Below are positions 84-8,931 of a stretch of 64,000 nucleotides of DNA, one piece after another. The stretch lies in UHGV virus genome UHGV-0167591, one strand, 5' to 3'. The stretch comes from a virus. The notes beneath the pieces were generated by a model. It was not told the origin of the DNA. It saw nothing but the letters and a program-made list of their open reading frames with translations, and did not search any database. Both the position numbers and the translations under genes were made by a program. Each line of letters starts with the position of its first letter. Within the stretch, counting starts at the first letter, position 1.

Positions 84-2150
84 ATGATCGAAATGCAGAT
101 GTATACCGCGAAGGATGACGGCGAACGTCTGGCAATGATGCAGGTTCAAATGGATAAGGCGAAAGCTGCGAAACGCGCTCGCCAGAAAGAACAGGCTACT
201 ATCGACCTTCAGAACTACATCAAGGCGCAGCACGCAGCTGGTGAGGATGTGGAGGTACTTACCGCTGAATTGGAGCGAAGCAAAGCGGAACTTGAAAAGA
301 CCACCGCCGACGTCGCCAAATTCAAACAGGCGGTAATGGCCAAAGCAGCTGATAACGCAGACTGGAAAGCCCGCTGGGGTAGCGTCCATCACACAGACCG
401 TATGTTGTTAGCACAGTATCGCGCGTCGTTGAAAAGCGCCATTCAGCGCAAGGCTAATATCTCTCAGGCCATCTCCCGCTATGAGAAATTATTGAACCGT
501 ACTCAGAAGGCCGCGACGGATATCAAACGCCTGCGCCCGCTGGTGGAGGATGCAATAAATAAAGGCATTCTGGATGTTGATCCTGATCTGGTTAACCATG
601 CGAATGAGTTCCTTGTTATCGGCGATCGCTCATGGCGTGTAGGCCAATACTATGATTGTGCCGGTGATATCGTTCGCATTAAGTCGCTGGACTTCGACAG
701 CCAGCGCGCAGACGTGGAGATCATCTTTACCTTCAAAGGCACCAAATCGGGTAACTGGGATGTGAAGACGCTGGATAAACAGGTTGATGTAACTCCCGAT
801 GAAGATGCTGTTATGCAGAAAATCAGTGGTGGCGTCTCCATCGCCGGGATTAACGACATCATTTCCTGTGACGATTTCTACCGTTTCCAGCAGCGCGGCA
901 TGATCAAAATCACTGACTCATACGGCGTTCAGACTACAGAGTCAGGCTATAGCATTGATTTTGTTGGTACCTATACGGACCCACTGAAGCATGCGGTTTA
1001 CCCGGATCGCCGTGACGGCGCGCTGAAGTCGTCAATTGCAAAATGGGTGCTTGGTATGATGTCGGAAGGGAATAACCGCCAGATCCGTTCGGCAGAAACA
1101 TTCCTGGTTGAACTGTTTGGCTCCAATTATGGCGATGTAATCGCGTCATACGGAGATACGCTATCCCCTGAAGCAATTCAGGAGAAAATAGCGGATGCGA
1201 TCGCCAGAATGCCGGAAAAAACAAGCCAGGGGGCTACTCGTAACGGGGATTCTGAACTTGAAGTCACCAATGCCATTTTCGGTACCAATGAGTTCCGGGC
1301 GTCAGATTATGAGATCACCACAGCACAGTTTGGCACCATTGGCATTTACAGCAATAAAGCCGAGATCAAGCAGGCAATGGACGCAGCAAGCGCGCGCATC
1401 GCAGCAGAACGGGAAGCCAATCTGAATCATGCAGTCGCCGCACTGACTCAATCGTGGGTAACAGCAATCAGGGAGGCCGCCACCACAGGGAAAATCACAC
1501 CTGCAATTGCGGATGTCGTAAACGACGGCTCTAAATTTATGGATGCCTATCAAATGGATGCGGTGCAGTTGCCATCAGCCTATGGCCAACTCAGCTATCG
1601 CATGACCTACAACCTGGTATCAATGTTTACTGACCTTGCCATCCTTGGGCTGGTGGACCTTAACGAGGTTACGCCGGAATTACTCAGCATGCGCAAGAAT
1701 CATGTTGAGATATTGCAGAGAATTAACACGGTTCTTGCCGGGCGCACCGATGAAGAGAAACAGGCCGACGCTGATCGGATAAACCTGGCCCTAGGCAACA
1801 TCACGGAGGAAGAAATTGCCGCCAGAAACGAGAAACAAGAAGAGTTATCATCAATACAGGGTGATGCCACCAGCATAGCTCAGTCTCTTGGGCTGAATTA
1901 TCGCGTATCCACCGCCGACCTGAAGATGATGTACGCACCAAAATTCGCCGCTGGCGAGGTATTTGGGCTTCAGGAAGCCTCCGGCATGAAAGGGGTTCTT
2001 TTCCGTGCGAAAGACGCAATCAAGGCGAAATTCGGCGCTCGCTGGTTGCCAGCGAAGGCGAAGAACAGCGACTTCCCAGGTAACTGGTGGATTATCGAGA
2101 CAAAACACAACGTGGCGGACGTTCTGGCCGTCATCCAACAATACGCATAA
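84..2150 (+). CDS. Large coiled-coil protein of unknown function (688 aa), upstream of the ulx/lxc pair
   Basis: Complete ORF; in-frame stop at 63-65 precedes it; N-terminal A/K/E/Q-rich coiled coil; no nucleotide-binding or helicase motifs seen. No clear SD, start uncertain. Confidence 0.6.
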   Translation: MIEMQMYTAKDDGERLAMMQVQMDKAKAAKRARQKEQATIDLQNYIKAQHAAGEDVEVLTAELERSKAELEKTTADVAKFKQAVMAKAADNADWKARWGSVHHTDRMLLAQYRASLKSAIQRKANISQAISRYEKLLNRTQKAATDIKRLRPLVEDAINKGILDVDPDLVNHANEFLVIGDRSWRVGQYYDCAGDIVRIKSLDFDSQRADVEIIFTFKGTKSGNWDVKTLDKQVDVTPDEDAVMQKISGGVSIAGINDIISCDDFYRFQQRGMIKITDSYGVQTTESGYSIDFVGTYTDPLKHAVYPDRRDGALKSSIAKWVLGMMSEGNNRQIRSAETFLVELFGSNYGDVIASYGDTLSPEAIQEKIADAIARMPEKTSQGATRNGDSELEVTNAIFGTNEFRASDYEITTAQFGTIGIYSNKAEIKQAMDAASARIAAEREANLNHAVAALTQSWVTAIREAATTGKITPAIADVVNDGSKFMDAYQMDAVQLPSAYGQLSYRMTYNLVSMFTDLAILGLVDLNEVTPELLSMRKNHVEILQRINTVLAGRTDEEKQADADRINLALGNITEEEIAARNEKQEELSSIQGDATSIAQSLGLNYRVSTADLKMMYAPKFAAGEVFGLQEASGMKGVLFRAKDAIKAKFGARWLPAKAKNSDFPGNWWIIETKHNVADVLAVIQQYA

Positions 2151-2183
2151 CAGGAGCGCCCGGTTCGCCGGGCGTCGCATAAT

Positions 2184-2624
2184 ATGGCCACATTATCTGA
2201 TACAATAAAACCGAATAAAACATATCTTGAGGCGGTGCTGCGTACGGCGTTGTTAGGAAAGACAGAAGACGAATACGTTGATTTCTTCCTGTCAGGGCTA
2301 CGCGGGCGATTACTGAAAAATCCCCGCCTGTACCGCAGCTATGGTCCATACTGGCCGGAAATTAAAAAATTATTACTGGAGCGCGGTTATGGTAATTTCG
2401 GTCGTCTCGTTGACCGTGACGTTCGCAAAATTTACCGTTATGACCGTCCGGCGCTGACGCTCATAGCCGCGACGCTCTACAGCCAGGAGCGTTTTGATAA
2501 TGGTCAGATATACTCAGCCTGGCATTTACTGCCAGTGCCTGAAGAGGTTGACGACCAGGACTATGAGTTTGAGTCTTACGATTTGGAAGTTGAAGCCTTG
2601 GCACAGGCTGGAGAGAAAACTTGA
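2184..2624 (+). CDS. Ulx-like protein (gene upstream of lxc), 146 aa
   Basis: ORF immediately upstream of and overlapping the lxc start (TTGA overlap); position matches P1 ulx; sequence identity not verifiable. Confidence 0.55.
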   Translation: MATLSDTIKPNKTYLEAVLRTALLGKTEDEYVDFFLSGLRGRLLKNPRLYRSYGPYWPEIKKLLLERGYGNFGRLVDRDVRKIYRYDRPALTLIAATLYSQERFDNGQIYSAWHLLPVPEEVDDQDYEFESYDLEVEALAQAGEKT

Positions 2625-2869
2625 AAAAGCGATACTACACAGTAAAGCATGGGACGCTACGAGCATTACAAGAGTTTGCTGATAAGCATAACGTTGAGGT
2701 GCGCAGGGAAGGGGGAAGTAAAGCTCTGCGCATGTACCGTCCGGACGGGAAATGGCGTACGGTCGTCGATTTCAAAACTAACAGCGTTCCCCAGGGCGTC
2801 CGCGACCGGGCATTCGAAGAATGGGAGCAGATCATCATAGATAATGCATTGCTCCTGAATGCTGATTGA
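2621..2869 (+). CDS. lxc: Lxc/Bof-like C1 co-repressor, 82 aa, TTG start
   Basis: 82 aa basic protein with TTG start overlapping upstream stop; size, start codon and position match my recollection of P1 bof/lxc. Confidence 0.55.
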   Translation: MKKRYYTVKHGTLRALQEFADKHNVEVRREGGSKALRMYRPDGKWRTVVDFKTNSVPQGVRDRAFEEWEQIIIDNALLLNAD

Positions 2870-2930
2870 TTTCCTGTTAGGTCACTTTATTTTTTAGAGT
2901 GGCCTAAATTACTCTTAATGAGGATGTGAT

Positions 2931-3881
2931 ATGAATGTTTTTATTGATACAAATCTATATTTGGAATTTTACAGGATGGGTAAAGATAAACTAGATGAGC
3001 TGGATAAAGTATTTGCCTTACATCAATATGGTCGTTTAAAACTTTGGTTACCAGAGCTTTTAGTGAATGAGTTCTGGAGGAATCGTTCTAAAGTTCTCTC
3101 TGAAACCATAAAGGAAATAACAAAAGATTATAAGCCCGCGCTTCCCCAGATTTTTAGGCAACATGAAAAGCATTCACAATTTAATGATAAGGTTATAGAA
3201 GCAGGTAGGTTAAAGAATGAAATTATTACAGATATCCAGAAATTGTTTAAAGAGGAGGCTTTGGCTGCCGATATTGTAATTAAAAGGATTTTTGATGCAG
3301 CATCTAAAATAGAGGCTGATGATGAAACAATAGATAAGGGGAAACTTCGATTTGATCTTGGAAACCCGCCTGGCAAAAATAAATCATATGGTGACGCAGT
3401 TAATTGGGAATGTTTGCTAAAAGCGATACCAGACGGTGAGGATATATATATCATAACTGAAGATGGTGATTATAAAAGTGCCTTTATAAAGGATGATATG
3501 AATGAATATTTGAAGCATGAGTGGAAAAAAAAGAAAAATTCAGAACCACATATCTATTCCCGCTTATCAGAGTTTATAGGCGAGCACTTTCCTCAAGCTA
3601 GTAACTTGGTGGAAATGGAAGTTAATCTCACTATAGATGAATTACGACACTCTGGCAGTTTTGCTACAACACATCGAGTTGTAGCAAAATTATTAAAGCT
3701 CACTCACTTTACACAAGAGCAAATCCTAAAAATAATTGATATTTATTTTGAAAATGATCAGGTTGGTTACATCAAAGATGATGATGATGTGAAACTTCTT
3801 GCCAGAAGACTAATATCATTAGGTGACGAGGATAAAGATCCTGAAGGGATGCTGGAGACATTCCGTGTATTTATTGATTAG
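2931..3881 (+). CDS. PIN-like domain protein (predicted nuclease), 316 aa; candidate defence/abortive-infection gene in the P1 res-mod slot
   Basis: N-terminal MNVFIDTN motif typical of PIN first strand; further acidic motifs (LPELLVNEF, GDAVNWE, IITEDGDY); strong SD GAGGA 8 nt upstream; visibly AT-rich versus flanks. Confidence 0.75.
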   Translation: MNVFIDTNLYLEFYRMGKDKLDELDKVFALHQYGRLKLWLPELLVNEFWRNRSKVLSETIKEITKDYKPALPQIFRQHEKHSQFNDKVIEAGRLKNEIITDIQKLFKEEALAADIVIKRIFDAASKIEADDETIDKGKLRFDLGNPPGKNKSYGDAVNWECLLKAIPDGEDIYIITEDGDYKSAFIKDDMNEYLKHEWKKKKNSEPHIYSRLSEFIGEHFPQASNLVEMEVNLTIDELRHSGSFATTHRVVAKLLKLTHFTQEQILKIIDIYFENDQVGYIKDDDDVKLLARRLISLGDEDKDPEGMLETFRVFID

Positions 3882-3887
3882 TATAAT

Positions 3888-3906
3888 GGGCGCATAGTTA
3901 GCGCCC
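3888..3906. terminator. Stem-loop between convergent genes (GGGCGC-atagtta-GCGCCC)
   Basis: Perfect 6 bp GC stem with 7 nt loop between the stops of the 2931-3881 and 3914-4555 genes; no strong U-tract. Confidence 0.35.
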
Positions 3907-3913
3907 AATAAGT

Positions 3914-4555
3914 TTAAAGATAATTATCTTTACCAGTTAATGAACCTTTAGGCACTTTCCGCGCGGCAATTTCATGAGTAGCTTGAATTATATTCACTAG
4001 GGGACTTAGTAACGACGTATCCTGATTGGCCTCAACTTCTCCTGCCATTGACCTGATGTAGTCGGCGCTGGCAACGTTGTTGTATTCCGTCGCAAAGCAA
4101 CATAGTAAGGTCAGAACATGCTCTGTCGTTATTTCGCTCCAGTTGATGTTGAAAAATTCATCGCCTTTTTTATCGTGTTCGGAATCGAAGATGCTTTGGT
4201 GGAGGATGTATTTGCCGGATTCCTTGCGCGGTAACTTGATTGCTTTCTGGCGTTCCAGCTCCTTATAAATCTGCATTGCTTCAATCAGTACCGGTCTGCC
4301 GTTCATGAAGGGATCACGCAACCTTACACGCTGGCCAACTCGACCGGTAATAAAGCTGTTTTCCTCTTCCACCAGCACGATAAAACCCTTTTCCTCTTTT
4401 TCTCGCAATTCGCGCAGCAGCTGGAGTTCCATATCGCGGCGGCGTTCAGGGTAGCTGGTCCGCTCAGCCATTATCAGCTCATTGTTGATCCATGCAGCAG
4501 TCATTGACGCCGGTTTGCCGACGCTCATTGAAACAACGCATATTTTCTTATCCAT
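3914..4555 (-). CDS. Hypothetical protein (213 aa) downstream of ref, in the position of P1 mat
   Basis: ORF on same strand as ref, about 190 bp downstream; ATG at 4555 chosen over upstream GTG at 4582; no recognisable motifs. Confidence 0.55.
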   Translation of the reverse strand: MDKKICVVSMSVGKPASMTAAWINNELIMAERTSYPERRRDMELQLLRELREKEEKGFIVLVEEENSFITGRVGQRVRLRDPFMNGRPVLIEAMQIYKELERQKAIKLPRKESGKYILHQSIFDSEHDKKGDEFFNINWSEITTEHVLTLLCCFATEYNNVASADYIRSMAGEVEANQDTSLLSPLVNIIQATHEIAARKVPKGSLTGKDNYL

Positions 4556-4743
4556 AGCGCCCCTACAAAAAAGAAAAGCCACCAGCGGCGGCTTAGCAAT
4601 ACAACTGAAGGTAGCGCCCGGTACTCAGACTGTGCCGTCCATGGAATATTTGAAAAGGGATCCATCCGTACCGGGCGTGTGATGATTCTGACTGAAGTCA
4701 CTTGTCAGTTGTCAATCATTTATCATTAAAAATAATATATTTA

Positions 4744-5304
4744 TTAGTGCATGATGTTTGCCATCTCATAGGCGTCAGCCAGTAACTCCATCTCTGACTT
4801 GTTCAGCAAGGTGAATTCTTTCTTGCCTCCAACCACACCATCGGCATGAACAGGGACCAGCCATGGGTATTTTTCTCTTACTTCAGCCGGAGCTGCATGC
4901 TGGTGGTGCCATCTACAAAGTGGCAATTGCTTTTTATGACAACCCGGCGCGGTACGACCGGCGATATGGTGCAGAGACACCTCATTAGATATTACTCCAT
5001 GCATATAGCAGGCAATGCAGGGGAGAGCGCCAAGAGCATTGGCGATGCGCCGTTCCTCCGCCGTTGGTGTTCTCCCCTTCAAGCCACGAGATTTTATTTT
5101 TACCGCGATTTTCCGCGTTTTGCTGGCTGGTGGGCGCTCTTTCTGTTTAGCGATACGGCGGTCGAGAGTATCCCGCATTTTCTGATATTGAGATTCTCGC
5201 CAGACCGGATCAGCCAACTTCTCCCGTTGCCGAGCGATCGCTCGTTCTCTGGCTGCCTTCTGCCACTTGCGGCACTGTTCAATTTTTTGTTCGATTGTTT
5301 TCAT
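4744..5304 (-). CDS. ref: Ref recombination enhancement function (HNH endonuclease), 186 aa
   Basis: 186 aa; Cys/His-rich HNH-like C-terminal half (CIACYMHG, HHIAGR, CRWHH); basic N-terminus; C1 operator upstream; matches P1 Ref. Confidence 0.85.
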   Translation of the reverse strand: MKTIEQKIEQCRKWQKAARERAIARQREKLADPVWRESQYQKMRDTLDRRIAKQKERPPASKTRKIAVKIKSRGLKGRTPTAEERRIANALGALPCIACYMHGVISNEVSLHHIAGRTAPGCHKKQLPLCRWHHQHAAPAEVREKYPWLVPVHADGVVGGKKEFTLLNKSEMELLADAYEMANIMH

Positions 5305-5401
5305 ATGGCAAAAAAAGGCGGCCTAATGGCCGCCAATGATGTCAAGGAGTGAAGTAATGGCAACGTCTTCGTAGTTGACAAAAACTGCGGCTCAATTATA
5401 G

Positions 5402-5418
5402 CAATGAATTAGAGCAAT
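5402..5418. promoter_or_regulatory. C1 repressor operator-like site upstream of ref
   Basis: 14/17 match to reverse complement of P1 operator consensus ATTGCTCTAATAAATTT; second related motif 5391-5407. Confidence 0.5.
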
Positions 5419-5551
5419 GATAGATATTTTGTTTATCGCGAATCACATTTTTTCACTTCAGTACCTGTGTGCTATACTCCTTCTTGATTGATTGGATGCG
5501 GAATACAACCCCGCTCTTTTGTGCAGCCTGGCTCCTTGCCAGGCTTTTTTT

Positions 5552-5863
5552 TTATTTCATCATGGAAGCTGTTAACGCTTTGGACCTTGCTGAACTGATT
5601 GAAAGGACATTGTTAACCTTACCCAAGAGTTCGCCAAACTCAGACATCACTTTAGCAAAACCGCGCCGTGCTTCTTCCTCGGTGGCATTCATCACGAAAT
5701 GTTCAGCACTACGCATACTTTTGACAGGAAACGCAACGGATATTGAGTCAATATCAGGCATTCTATCGCTCAGCTTTACAGTGACAATGACGGCTGGCGA
5801 CTGAATATTAGTGCTTACAGACAGCACTACATATTTTCCGTCGATGTTGAAATCCTTTCTCAT
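5552..5863 (-). CDS. Hypothetical protein (103 aa) immediately downstream of cre (position of P1 cra)
   Basis: ORF on cre strand 50 bp after cre stop, with operator-like motif in between; function unknown. Confidence 0.45.
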   Translation of the reverse strand: MRKDFNIDGKYVVLSVSTNIQSPAVIVTVKLSDRMPDIDSISVAFPVKSMRSAEHFVMNATEEEARRGFAKVMSEFGELLGKVNNVLSISSARSKALTASMMK

Positions 5864-5879
5864 ATGTCACCATAAATAT

Positions 5880-5896
5880 CAAAGAATTAGAGCAAT
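5880..5896. promoter_or_regulatory. C1 operator-like site between cre and the downstream ORF
   Basis: 13/17 match to operator consensus (GAATTAGAGCAAT core). Confidence 0.4.
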
Positions 5897-5913
5897 CATT
5901 TACGCGTTAATGG

Positions 5914-6945
5914 CTAATCGCCATCTTCCAGCAGGCGCACCATTGCCCCTGTTTCACTATCCAGGTTACGGATATAGTTCATGACAATATTTACGTTGGT
6001 CCAGCCACCAGCTTGCATGATCTCCGGTATTGAAACTCCGGCACGGGCCATATCTCGCGCGGCTCCGACACGGGCACTGTGTCCAGACCAGGCCAGGTAT
6101 CTCTGACCAGAGTCATCCTTAGCGCCGTAAATCAATCGATGAGTTGCTTCAAAAATCCCTTCCAGGGCGCGAGTTGATAGCTGGCTGGTGGCAGATGGCG
6201 CGGCAACACCATTTTTTCTGACCCGGCAAAACAGGTAGTTATTCGGATCATCAGCTACACCAGAGACGGAAATCCATCGCTCGACCAGTTTAGTTACCCC
6301 CAGGCTAAGTGCCTTCTCTACACCTGCGGTGCTAACCAGCGTTTTCGTTCTGCCAATAAGGATTAACATTCTCCCACCGTCAGTACGTGAGATATCTTTA
6401 ACCCTGATCCTGGCAATTTCGGCTATACGTAACAGGGTGTTATAAGCAATCCCCAGAAATGCCAGATTACGTATATCCTGGCAGCGATCGCTATTTCCCA
6501 TGAGTGAACGAACCTGGTCGAAATCAGTGCGTTCGAACGCTAGAGCCTGTTTTGCACGTTCACCGGCATCAACGTTTTCTTTTCGGATCCGCCGCATAAC
6601 CAGTGAAACAGCATTGCTGTCACTTGGTCGTGGCAGCCCGGACCGACGATGAAGCATGTTTAGCTGGCCCAAATGTTGCTGGATAGTTTTTACTGCCAGA
6701 CCGCGCGCCTGAAGATATAGAAGATAATCGCGAACATCTTCAGGTTCTGCGGGAAACCATTTCCGGTTATTCAACTTGCACCATGCCGCCCACGACCGGC
6801 AAACGGACAGAAGCATTTTCCAGGTATGCTCAGAAAACGCCTGGCGATCCCTGAACATGTCCATCAGGTTCTTGCGAACCTCATCACTCGTTGCATCGAC
6901 CGGTAATGCAGGCAAATTTTGGTGTACGGTCAGTAAATTGGACAT
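5914..6945 (-). CDS. cre: Cre site-specific tyrosine recombinase, 343 aa
   Basis: Translation begins MSNLLTVHQNLPALPVDATSDEVRKNLMDMFRDRQAFSEHTWKMLLSVCRSWAAWCKLNNRKWFPAEPEDVRDYLLYLQARGLAVKTIQQHLGQLNMLHRRSGLPRPSDSNAVSLVMRRIRKENVDAGERAKQALAFERTDFDQVRSLMENSDRCQDIRNLAFLGIAYNTLLRIAEIARIRVKDISRTDGGRMLIHIGRTKTLVSTAGVEKALSLGVTKLVERWISVSGVADDPNNYLFCRVRKNGVAAPSATSQLSTRALEGIFEATHRLIYGAKDDSGQRYLAWSGHSARVGAARDMARAGVSIPEIMQAGGWTNVNIVMNYIRNLDSETGAMVRLLEDGD. Confidence 0.97.
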   Translation of the reverse strand: MSNLLTVHQNLPALPVDATSDEVRKNLMDMFRDRQAFSEHTWKMLLSVCRSWAAWCKLNNRKWFPAEPEDVRDYLLYLQARGLAVKTIQQHLGQLNMLHRRSGLPRPSDSNAVSLVMRRIRKENVDAGERAKQALAFERTDFDQVRSLMGNSDRCQDIRNLAFLGIAYNTLLRIAEIARIRVKDISRTDGGRMLILIGRTKTLVSTAGVEKALSLGVTKLVERWISVSGVADDPNNYLFCRVRKNGVAAPSATSQLSTRALEGIFEATHRLIYGAKDDSGQRYLAWSGHSARVGAARDMARAGVSIPEIMQAGGWTNVNIVMNYIRNLDSETGAMVRLLEDGD

Positions 6946-6952
6946 TTAACAC

Positions 6953-7174
6953 TCAGATAATGGTTTTAAGTAAAGTGTACAGGATCGGCTCTGCCTTTAC
7001 CTGTTTATGGTTCTCGTCATAGAAACGCCAGCGACCGCGCGTGCGTTCTATTTTCTCTTCACCGCGCGATAATGACAGTTGACAACTATCACGATCAAAC
7101 CCTTTTGCCCGCCAGTAACCACGGTTTTTCTCAAGCTCAATATGAGTGGACACTTTAGCAGCTGAATATCCCAT
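6953..7174 (-). CDS. Small basic ORF (73 aa) between loxP and cre; coding status doubtful
   Basis: ORF only; lies in the cre promoter region about 190 bp from loxP. Confidence 0.2.
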   Translation of the reverse strand: MGYSAAKVSTHIELEKNRGYWRAKGFDRDSCQLSLSRGEEKIERTRGRWRFYDENHKQVKAEPILYTLLKTII

Positions 7175-7363
7175 TTTTCACCTCTGATTGATTGGTGGTG
7201 CTAAGTGCGCTACGCGAAATCTGGAGCACTAACACTGCCAACATTTCGCAGATTTTACGTAGCGCAACCTTGATCAAATGATCAAGTGATCACTATTTGA
7301 CCTGATAAGGTATTGAACTGTATGGATTTACAGGTAAATTGATCATGTTCAATAACCCTTAAA

Positions 7364-7397
7364 ATAACTTCGTATAATGTATGCTATACGAAGTTAT
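7364..7397. other. loxP recombination site (34 bp)
   Basis: Exact ATAACTTCGTATA-ATGTATGC-TATACGAAGTTAT, two 13 bp inverted repeats around 8 bp spacer, about 420 bp upstream of cre. Confidence 0.98.
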
Positions 7398-7440
7398 CAG
7401 GTCAGAAGAGGAGTTTACGTCCAGCTGCGCACAAAAATCA

Positions 7441-7457
7441 AGAATTATTAGAGCAAT
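7441..7457. promoter_or_regulatory. C1 operator (immC region)
   Basis: 15/17 match to operator consensus (reverse orientation). Confidence 0.6.
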
Positions 7458-7514
7458 ACAATAAACCACTTTCTTCCAGCAAAAATCTGGATTGTTTTTC
7501 ATAGTTGTTTGACA

Positions 7515-7531
7515 ATTGCTCTAATAAATTA
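7515..7531. promoter_or_regulatory. C1 operator (immC region)
   Basis: ATTGCTCTAATAAATTA, 16/17 match to consensus ATTGCTCTAATAAATTT. Confidence 0.7.
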
Positions 7532-7601
7532 TAGTTTTGCCGCCGTTTCGTAATATGACACCAAGGCCACCTTCAGGTGTTATAGAGCGGCTCAGAGGGA
7601 A

Positions 7602-7706
7602 ATGAGCAAACAGGGAAACCTTATACAAACGGCATTACGGCTATGCATTGCTCATCTTACACACAGCGCAATGTTGTTAGATAACCCCAGCATGGATTAT
7701 GGGTGA
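7602..7706 (+). CDS. Small ORF (34 aa) upstream of coi (imcA/imcB-like position)
   Basis: ATG preceded by AGAGGGA SD; ends 54 bp before coi start; below the ORF-track size cutoff. Confidence 0.3.
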   Translation: MSKQGNLIQTALRLCIAHLTHSAMLLDNPSMDYG

Positions 7707-7759
7707 AACAGTAGGTCAGAGCTTCAGGCTCTGTGTTGTCAATACAGTGAGGCATAATT

Positions 7760-7969
7760 ATGGCTTTCATTCCACCAACCATCGACGACGTTAGACATTG
7801 CTCTAACGCTTTATCTGTAGACCCCGCCGAAACCGACGCTGCTCGCGCCATTGCTGAACACTACTCAAAGATATCCAATCAGGAGTACCGCATCACCCAA
7901 GACGACCTTGATGATCTCACTGACACAATCGAATATCTCATGGCCACTAACCAGCCAGACTCACAATAA
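7760..7969 (+). CDS. coi: Coi, C1 inactivator, 69 aa
   Basis: 69 aa acidic protein immediately upstream of c1; matches P1 Coi in size and position; SD GTGAGG. Confidence 0.85.
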   Translation: MAFIPPTIDDVRHCSNALSVDPAETDAARAIAEHYSKISNQEYRITQDDLDDLTDTIEYLMATNQPDSQ

Positions 7970-8079
7970 ATGCACTAATAAATCTATTATTTTTGCTGGA
8001 TCCTTCTATAATGGTGGTCAACAACTCTCAGTGTTATCCGCTGTGAGTTGTTGGCCATGTCAATTCTGGAGGAGGATCA

Positions 8080-8931
8080 ATGATAAATTATGTCTACGGC
8101 GAACAACTGTACCAGGAGTTCGTCAGCTTCAGGGATCTCTTTCTAAAAAAAGCTGTTGCACGCGCCCAACATGTTGATGCCGCCAGCGACGGACGTCCTG
8201 TACGCCCTGTTGTCGTTCTGCCGTTTAAAGAAACGGACAGCATTCAAGCTGAAATTGATAAATGGACATTAATGGCGAAGGAGCTGGAACAGTACCCAGA
8301 CCTGAATATCCCAAAAACAATTTTATATCCTGTTCCTAACATACTTCGCGGTGTGCGGAAGGTGACAACTTATCGGACGGAGGCTGTTAATAGCGTAAAT
8401 ATGACTGCCGGTCGCATTATCCATCTGATCGACAGAGATATTCGAATCCAAAAAAGCGCAGGTATTAGCGAACACAGCGCAAAGTACATAGAGAACCTGG
8501 AAACAACGAAAGAGCTGATGATGCAGTATCCGGAAGATGAGAAATTCCGTATGCGCGTACACGGCTTTAGTGAGACCATGCTCCGCGTCCACTACATTTC
8601 CAGCAGTCCTAACTATAATGGCGGTAAATCAGTTAGTTATCACGTCCCATTATGTGGCGTATTTATTTGTGACGAAACTCTCCGCGATGGGATTATCATC
8701 AATGGCGAGTTTGAGAAAGCAAAATTTAGTATTTACGACTCTATAGAGCCAATCATCTGCGATCGTTGGCCACAGGCGAAAATATATCGCCTGGCAGATA
8801 TTGAAAACGTAAAAAAACAAATTGCCATCACTCGCGAAGAGAAGAAGGTTAAATCAGCCGCATCAGTTACGCGTAGCCGTAAAACTAAGAAGGGGCAGCC
8901 GGTTAACGACAACCCCGAAAGCGCGCAATAG
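8080..8931 (+). CDS. c1: C1 immunity repressor, 283 aa
   Basis: 283 aa; begins MINYVYGEQLYQEF; SD GGAGG; located by loxP with coi upstream, as in P1 immC. Confidence 0.92.
   Translation: MINYVYGEQLYQEFVSFRDLFLKKAVARAQHVDAASDGRPVRPVVVLPFKETDSIQAEIDKWTLMAKELEQYPDLNIPKTILYPVPNILRGVRKVTTYRTEAVNSVNMTAGRIIHLIDRDIRIQKSAGISEHSAKYIENLETTKELMMQYPEDEKFRMRVHGFSETMLRVHYISSSPNYNGGKSVSYHVPLCGVFICDETLRDGIIINGEFEKAKFSIYDSIEPIICDRWPQAKIYRLADIENVKKQIAITREEKKVKSAASVTRSRKTKKGQPVNDNPESAQ

Follow-up and report, generated by a model that had tools for sequence, protein, structure and literature searches.

Which function has been gained by a P1-like element that lacks the type III restriction-modification (R-M) system of bacteriophage P1? 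The question is raised by virus genome UHGV-0167591, of which a stretch of 64,000 nucleotides (the window) was analysed and which, judged from gene content and gene order, is a P1-like phage-plasmid (Punavirus). In both P1 (NC_005856) and P7, res and mod lie in the interval from mat to lxc. A single open reading frame (ORF) of 951 bp (2931-3881, plus strand, ATG start, 316 aa) stands at this position in the window; res and mod are missing, and the ORF protein does not match any R-M family. An earlier sequence-only reading had taken the gene for a single-gene defence or abortive-infection module that was swapped into a hotspot, and context, conservation and module homology speak for this view. 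With somewhat better than even confidence, we consider the gene to code for a single-protein anti-phage nuclease, acting by abortive infection or superinfection exclusion, which replaces the EcoP1I R-M system of P1. As far as can be judged from the sequence, the protein is best described as a putative effector swap, with a PIN nuclease in place of the HEPN nuclease on a sensor of the type found in DARNA, located in a P1 defence hotspot.

The nuclease assignment rests on the N-terminal domain. All motifs which had initially suggested a PIN-type active site (MNVFIDTN, LPELLVNEF, GDAVNWE and IITEDGDY) are present in the ORF, and the assignment was borne out by Pfam family PF16289 (61.4 bits, gathering cut-off 32), with protein residues 3-181 matching model positions 1-172 of 172. 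This family is also precomputed on essentially all of the 120 homologues listed. The domain has the alpha/beta/alpha fold of VapC-type PIN proteins and is structurally closest to VapC toxins, at a sequence identity of 10-17%. Acidic residues are strictly conserved among 209 relatives: E47, D114, D155 and D178 occur in all of them, D6 in 208 and D180 in 205. Also invariant or near-invariant are R50, R52, R140 and the GNPPGK loop (144-149). The acidic residues appear to represent the complete set of four to five metal-binding residues of a PIN active site.

PF16289 corresponds to PIN_12 (DUF4935), which is annotated as 'function unknown' and has been assigned, within the PIN-like superfamily, to the VapC structural group; for its C-terminal region, homologues could reportedly not be detected (Matelska et al. 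2017, PMC5499597). The protein from the window is a member of this family according to its full-length model match and its conserved acidic residues, and shares with it the long insert of helices that follows strand 2 as well as the mono-cistronic gene organization (PMC5499597). A defence role for PIN_12/DUF4935 has not been proposed in the literature searched. Existing annotations of the gene are restricted to 'hypothetical', 'PIN domain-containing' or 'DUF4935'; there is no match to NCBIfam, and the matching PHROG is a family of unknown function. The protein is not part of a VapBC system: a VapB antitoxin is missing, the upstream spacer of 61 bp does not contain an ORF, and the neighbours differ everywhere. 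While VapC toxins are single-domain proteins of ~130-150 aa, the protein from the window, of 316 aa, carries an additional fused domain as well as a large insert of helices.

The link to phage sensing comes from the extra domain. In the predicted structure, the C-terminal 95 residues fold on their own (pLDDT 95). They resemble part of DARNA (PD-T7-3) from E. coli ECOR30, which is an ssDNA-activated HEPN tRNA anticodon nuclease (Vassallo et al. 2022, PMC9519451; Puteikiene et al. 2026, bioRxiv 10.64898/2026.02.22.705581). DARNA is a dodecamer which cleaves the tRNA anticodon loop upon activation by ssDNA that is presented by the SSB of a phage (a protein that binds single-stranded DNA); F368, Q403 and W406 contact the ssDNA, D372 is the cytosine-reading Asp, and mutants F368A and W406A lose function (bioRxiv 10.64898/2026.02.22.705581). 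The PADLOC profile PD-T7-3 matches 104 residues of the window protein with 20.2 bits (profile positions 293-398 of 432), while true DARNA reaches 546 bits (positions 3-429). In a first scan the window protein was the sole match among 30 family members; two others (P0174, E 3e-4; P0210, E 4e-3) were then found to match in the same register.

For a direct comparison, the DARNA sequence was rebuilt from an OCR'd supplementary alignment (PMC10799925) and then used to retrieve a protein of 455 aa (P0268). This is DARNA, with a PD-T7-3 match at E 2e-164 and with R117, H122, F368, D372, N402, Q403, Y405, W406 and N408 at their published numbers. When an alignment of the C-terminal domain (22 sequences) was compared by hhalign to a DARNA-family alignment (30 members), a match with E 3.7e-5 and a score of 40.3 was obtained over 81 columns, with residues 230-311 of the window protein corresponding to DARNA 354-439. 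An E-value of 1.3e-4 resulted when the alignment of the full-length family was used instead. Shuffling the columns of either alignment (300 shuffles) resulted in a mean score of 14.8 (SD 2.7, maximum 24.4), so that the observed score has a z of ~9, and the reversed profile scored 14.4. The match to DARNA is thus not an artefact of composition.

Conservation within the aligned segment was counted in 209 members of the window-protein family and in 112 members of the DARNA family. S241 (196/209) is aligned with DARNA S365 (107/112), N275 (209/209) with N401 (111/112), Q277 (206/209) with Q403 (110/112) and D286 (199/209) with D415 (92/112). F244 (F in 200 and Y in 8 of the 209) is aligned with F368 (F in 89 and Y in 22 of the 112), and position 280 (W in 149 and Y in 13 proteins) with W406 (W in 60/112). 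The distal ssDNA-reading module of DARNA (F368, Q403, W406) thus has its counterpart in the window family, with Y280 in the window protein itself. Both proteins are encoded by a single gene and combine an N-terminal RNase-type effector with an all-helical C-terminal solenoid containing the homologous module of ~80 residues. They differ in that DARNA has 455 aa and a HEPN domain, while the window protein has 316 aa, a PIN domain and no RX4H motif; residues 160-353 of DARNA have no counterpart. With PIN instead of HEPN (R-x4-H) and only a partial PD-T7-3 match, the window protein is not a member of the DARNA family.

A PADLOC scan connected the C-terminal domain to yet another family, candidate PDC-S34 (PDLC05001, E 1.2e-11). 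The match occurs in all of the 41 family members scanned (30/30, 10/10 and 1/1; best E 1.6e-16) and in all 41 is restricted to profile positions ~275-380 of 384. PDC-S34 has the same C-terminal module, while the first ~275 profile positions are without counterpart in the window-protein family and presumably represent a different N-terminal effector. As the profile is matched only partially, the window protein was not assigned to PDC-S34 proper. It was also considered that PDC-S34 might be a longer protein with PIN and C-terminal domain, co-linear with phrog_9788. This was not supported, as the match did not extend N-terminally in a check that covered long and divergent members, viral PIN proteins and ORF18 of RSA1. 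No published validation was found for PDC-S34, a single-gene 'phage defence candidate', and none of 30 DARNA-family proteins matches it. Based on the profile comparisons, the helical module is probably homologous across three otherwise different protein families: that of the window protein, DARNA and PDC-S34.

Further searches with this domain led back to the same family. Sequence searches against PDB with the single protein, the full-length profile and the C-domain profile returned no matches, and a Foldseek search against PDB returned only weak ones. By tblastn of the C-terminal domain against plasmids and phages only the same gene was found. A C-domain profile search resulted in 1,362 matches, and all of the 150 listed belong to the same family with PIN and C-terminal domain or are fragments thereof. 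One of the proteins (P0190, 428 aa) seemed to have a new architecture; it is actually a PIN protein that is cut at the N-terminus and has a C-terminal extension.

The P2-like Ralstonia phage RSA1 (92 bits) and further viral contigs encode PIN_12 heads with unrelated tails as morons, and thus the PIN head and the C-terminal tail are separately mobile modules. Such reverse-oriented morons are located at 3968-4909 in RSA1 (L019), at 3929-4846 in L031 and at 3884-5098 in L037, and none of them matches PDC-S34. In RSA1, the gene is flanked by a virion-morphogenesis gene and by that for the baseplate spike; L037 is a low-GC phage contig where the ORF downstream of the PIN_12 gene starts, by eye, like a terminase small subunit.

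The position of the gene becomes evident from the features at the left end of the window:

84-2150: 3' end of darB
2184-2624: ulx
2621-2869, plus strand: lxc (82 aa), which borders the hotspot on the left; its stop codon is where homology to P1 is lost
2877-2907, plus strand: hairpin with a 13-bp stem and no U-tract, within the 61-bp spacer between lxc and the ORF
2908-2930, plus strand: small stem pairing the Shine-Dalgarno sequence GAGGA (2920-2924), just 5' of the ATG
2931-3881, plus strand: ORF of 316 aa, PIN_12 nuclease with C-terminal helical sensor-like domain
2931-3590, plus strand: PIN_12/DUF4935 nuclease domain (residues 1 to ~220)
3594-3878, plus strand: autonomous helical C-terminal domain (residues 222-316), a HEAT/ARM-like solenoid
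3618-3863, plus strand: segment (residues 230-311) aligned to DARNA 354-439 by hhalign
3887-3907: GC-rich hairpin (7-bp stem with GGGCGC / GCGCCC core) between the convergent ORF and mat
3914-4582, minus strand: mat, right boundary of the hotspot

In the alignment with P1 and phage JL22, homology to P1 is lost at the lxc stop codon (2869) and regained at the hairpin 3887-3907. The swapped cassette is about 2870-3890, and from these breakpoints ~6 kb have been cleanly replaced by ~1 kb. The right-hand hairpin (folding z of -3.95 on the plus strand and -6.4 on the minus strand) is likely to be a bidirectional terminator and also the right recombination junction with P1-type sequence. The slot had initially been described as reaching from ref to lxc. 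While lxc is indeed the left neighbour, the right neighbour is mat, and ref comes after mat, likewise on the minus strand and together with c8, cre and cra. The P1 content of the slot had been given as res and mod plus IS1. Here, res and mod were correct, and the insertion element is an IS5 inside mod; IS1 of the sequenced P1 is found at 22,626-23,393, between isaA and isaB. Neither an IS1 nor an SSB gene occurs within the 64-kb window.

The AT-richness of the cassette, which had been noted before, could be verified. GC is 0.33-0.36 over 2850-3900 and ~0.49-0.53 on both sides; the ORF itself has a GC of 0.344 and a GC3 of 0.281, while GC3 is 0.48-0.57 in darB, ulx, lxc, mat, ref and cre.

The slot between lxc and mat is a multi-allelic defence hotspot in P1-like elements. 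It is occupied by EcoP1/EcoP7 res-mod in P1 and P7 and is empty in RCS47, where only a 39-bp gap is found. In MH422554.1 (3221-4261, plus strand) an unannotated 346-aa DUF2971 ORF corresponds to PDC-S31 (E 2e-16). In vB_EcoM-673R5 (ON470615.2, 3429-4528, minus strand) a RelA/SpoT gene corresponds to PDC-S33 (E 3e-42), and mat and ref are displaced too. Among complete E. coli genomes, res was found 57 times on plasmids, DUF2971 in 62 genomes, RelA/SpoT in 83 and the PIN gene in 30. OP279344.1, which is among the best-matching 'P1' records, represents a strain whose res and mod were deleted by engineering and whose slot carries two inserted ORFs; it was not counted as natural variation. The RelA/SpoT gene is represented by two ORFs in ON470615.2 and is a single gene in other genomes; the split is probably due to a frameshift or a sequencing error.

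Near-identical elements with alternative AT-rich defence cassettes at a fixed site are also known from the hotspots of P2/P4 prophages and satellites (Rousset et al. 2022, PMC9122126); the element considered here is a P1-like phage-plasmid instead, and the site is between lxc and mat. In the literature searched, which was not exhaustive, this slot has not been described as a hotspot. PDC-S31, PDC-S33 and PDC-S34 are near-consecutive single-gene candidates in PADLOC, and all of them are found in cassettes of this slot or share a domain with them. This suggests that these candidates have been mined from the same kind of hotspot.

Homologues outside of P1-like elements are found in different surroundings. 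The homologue of Vibrio europaeus comes directly after Hhe (E 0), among PDC-M14B, PDC-S50 and PDC-S71 genes, and that of Serratia adjoins a Hachiman system (HamA and helicase). In Klebsiella the homologue lies on an integrated island together with HNH, Mrr-type PDC-S02, HsdM, ScoMcrA-HNH and CbtA/CbeA. The Salegentibacter homologue follows an EndoU toxin gene, and that of Pantoea is found within a prophage. There is no conserved neighbour gene across the contexts examined, and with neighbours varying in all of them the gene represents a single-gene unit.

The gene was detected in one phage record (JL22, 90% nucleotide identity), in 23 PLSDB plasmids and in 30 out of 5,426 complete genomes of E. 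coli. In this species it resides on plasmids of 90-108 kb in every case and never on the chromosome. P1-like ulx-lxc occurs in 699 of the 5,426 genomes (~13%) and thus the gene is present in ~4% of the P1-like elements. It is absent from P1, P7 and RCS47, and is therefore not a conserved core gene of the P1 family. Two alleles exist in E. coli, one at ~99.6% and the other at ~90% identity. They differ from each other with a dS of 0.43 and a dN of 0.031, so that ω is 0.07 (0.05 for the PIN part and 0.13 for the C-terminal part), which indicates strong purifying selection on both domains and excludes junk DNA. As the adjacent lxc is 97% identical between the two allele-bearing elements, the cassette alleles are far older than the backbone.

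With respect to expression, the ORF has a strong Shine-Dalgarno sequence of its own, as had been noticed before (GAGGA, 6 nt 5' of the ATG), and no sigma-70-like promoter was detected in the spacer that separates it from lxc. The ulx gene contains three annotated promoters of lxc, which are conserved and lie in a region with 99% identity to P1, and Lxc is a lysogenic co-repressor, as is also annotated in the P1 record. For these reasons, low-level expression in lysogens by read-through from the lxc promoters seems likeliest. The spacer between lxc and the ORF is strongly folded (-21.4 kcal/mol, z -4.0), and its hairpin is retained in the JL22 allele via a change from G-U to G-C. The stem which pairs the Shine-Dalgarno sequence possibly dampens translation, and hairpin and stem together may act as an attenuator or as a brake on the translation of a gene that is potentially toxic.

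By combining these data we propose the following mechanism. The ORF would be transcribed in the lysogen by this read-through, with the enzyme being kept latent. Replication of a competitor phage would expose nucleic acid, which may be bound by a pocket formed by F244, H248, N275, Q277 and Y280. By analogy to DARNA the trigger would be ssDNA, perhaps presented by a phage SSB that is not of the host type. Binding of the ligand may switch on the PIN site, possibly via oligomerisation. VapC enzymes cleave tRNA or rRNA, and a VapC-like cut in such cellular RNA would halt translation before the invader completes its cycle, resulting in abortive infection. P1 Ssb is 65% identical to what we take to be the E. 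coli SSB sequence and has an identical C-terminal tip. Because P1 Ssb is host-like, a DARNA-type recognition of foreign SSB would, speculatively, spare the carrier phage.

More tentatively, the ~80-residue module may be a portable infection sensor for nucleic acid, probably ssDNA, which is attached to at least three heads: HEPN in DARNA, PIN in the window protein and another head in PDC-S34. The PIN version, with H or R at position 248, would read a different motif. The proteins would then form a large family of single-protein abortive-infection systems with more than 1,300 representative clusters from Proteobacteria and Bacteroidota, deployed by P1-like phage-plasmids against competitors that have their own SSB of non-host type.

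Several observations weigh against a DARNA-type anti-phage function. The fold of the C-terminal domain is a generic helical solenoid for which there is no discriminating structural match. The connection to DARNA comprises ~80 residues with 14% identity and an hhalign probability of 71%, and the PADLOC PD-T7-3 profile is reached by only 3 of 40 family members. The cytosine-reading residue is not conserved, as 156 of the 209 relatives have H and 47 have R at position 248, while DARNA D372 is D in 101 of 112; by analogy to DARNA, this replacement suggests specificity for a different base, motif or ligand. The counterpart of W406 is Y280 (nt 3768-3770) in the window protein and F in the JL22 allele. 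The homologue of Aeromonas has no obvious defence neighbours, expression in lysogens is something which we infer, and experimental work on any member of the family was not found in the literature searched. In addition, PIN-superfamily enzymes are also able to cut DNA. Acting as a DNA or structure-specific nuclease, the protein might defend by direct attack on the nucleic acid of the invader and provide direct immunity instead of cleaving host RNA in abortive infection. We consider this unlikely. That the two E. coli alleles differ (Y or F at position 280) at a putative ligand-stacking residue is an observation in its own right.

The structural proximity of the PIN head to VapC toxins, together with the location of the gene on a low-copy plasmid prophage, could also point to plasmid addiction, with a PIN toxin that is inhibited in cis by the C-terminal domain and that serves plasmid stabilisation or selfish persistence. 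A precedent for a fused toxin-antitoxin is CapRel (cited in the DARNA preprint), and a RelA/SpoT-family cassette (PDC-S33) occupies the same slot in sister elements. We regard this as quite unlikely, as the homologues examined are chromosomal or prophage-borne (the one exception being a 1.2-kb contig with the gene alone), several are in defence islands and none is in a plasmid maintenance region. Furthermore, P1-type elements already have phd-doc (seen in SJ46), there is no antitoxin gene, with a spacer of 61 bp and varying neighbours, and simple cis-inhibition leaves the pocket of base-reading type that is shared with DARNA unexplained. Addiction and phage sensing are compatible with each other.

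The ORF is immediately 3' of darB-ulx-lxc, beside genes annotated for anti-restriction, and has the same strand as lxc with a probably shared transcript. This would fit a role in the life cycle of the P1-like phage itself or in counter-defence, such as decay of host RNA during lytic growth or a partnership with the Dar anti-restriction system. Such a role is improbable, as a gene with so patchy an occurrence, being absent in P1, P7 and RCS47, is not core, as the alternative occupants of the slot are defence genes, and as homologues occur in bacterial chromosomes without dar genes (Vibrio, Serratia, Klebsiella, Bacteroidota). Foreign composition and patchy distribution would also be expected for decaying or functionless cargo that hitch-hikes at a recombination-prone site. 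The selection analysis has largely refuted this, since ω is so low over the divergence of the two alleles, and we give it hardly any credence: ORF and Shine-Dalgarno sequence are intact, and the two-domain architecture and the near-invariant catalytic residues are maintained over 209 relatives from several phyla. We thus retain the interpretation as a single-protein anti-phage nuclease.

If this is true, a trigger consisting of ssDNA presented by a viral SSB, for which DARNA (2026 preprint) is the only mechanistically understood case, would no longer be confined to a single HEPN protein but belong to a modular sensor shared by several classes of nucleases. DUF4935/PIN_12, listed as 'unknown' since 2017, would be provided with a function, and the family-specific change from D to H or R at the base-reading position would be a handle on how the specificity of such sensors is tuned. 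The slot between lxc and mat is documented as a multi-allelic defence hotspot with type III R-M, PDC-S31, PDC-S33 or the PIN gene, and this bears on the prediction of host range in phage therapy and on P1 as a transduction and delivery vehicle.

Additional cargo was found close to the hotspot. In vB_EcoM-Ro157c2YLVW (MH160767.1, 3207-5568), lxc is directly followed by genes for an AraC-family HTH protein and an EAL-domain protein, the latter being of the cyclic-di-GMP phosphodiesterase type, which is non-defence cargo. Salmonella phage SJ46 carries Tn1721, IS903D and blaCTX-M-27 between mat and ref (400-8810). The junction between mat and ref is a second insertion-prone site, with resistance genes in SJ46. 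In P7, Tn3 is found at the end of ref.

The mat gene of the window differs from that of P1. In its 5' region (4583-4590, minus strand) 1 bp has been deleted from a G-run (GGGG, compared to GGGGG in P1 and MH422554), which results in a frameshift within the 37-aa N-terminal extension of the annotated 250-aa Mat of P1. Only the internal MDKK/GTG start is retained (222 or 213 aa). Unless mat functions without its N-terminal extension, it is impaired in this lineage. The annotators of JL22 split mat in two, seemingly for the same G-run frameshift.
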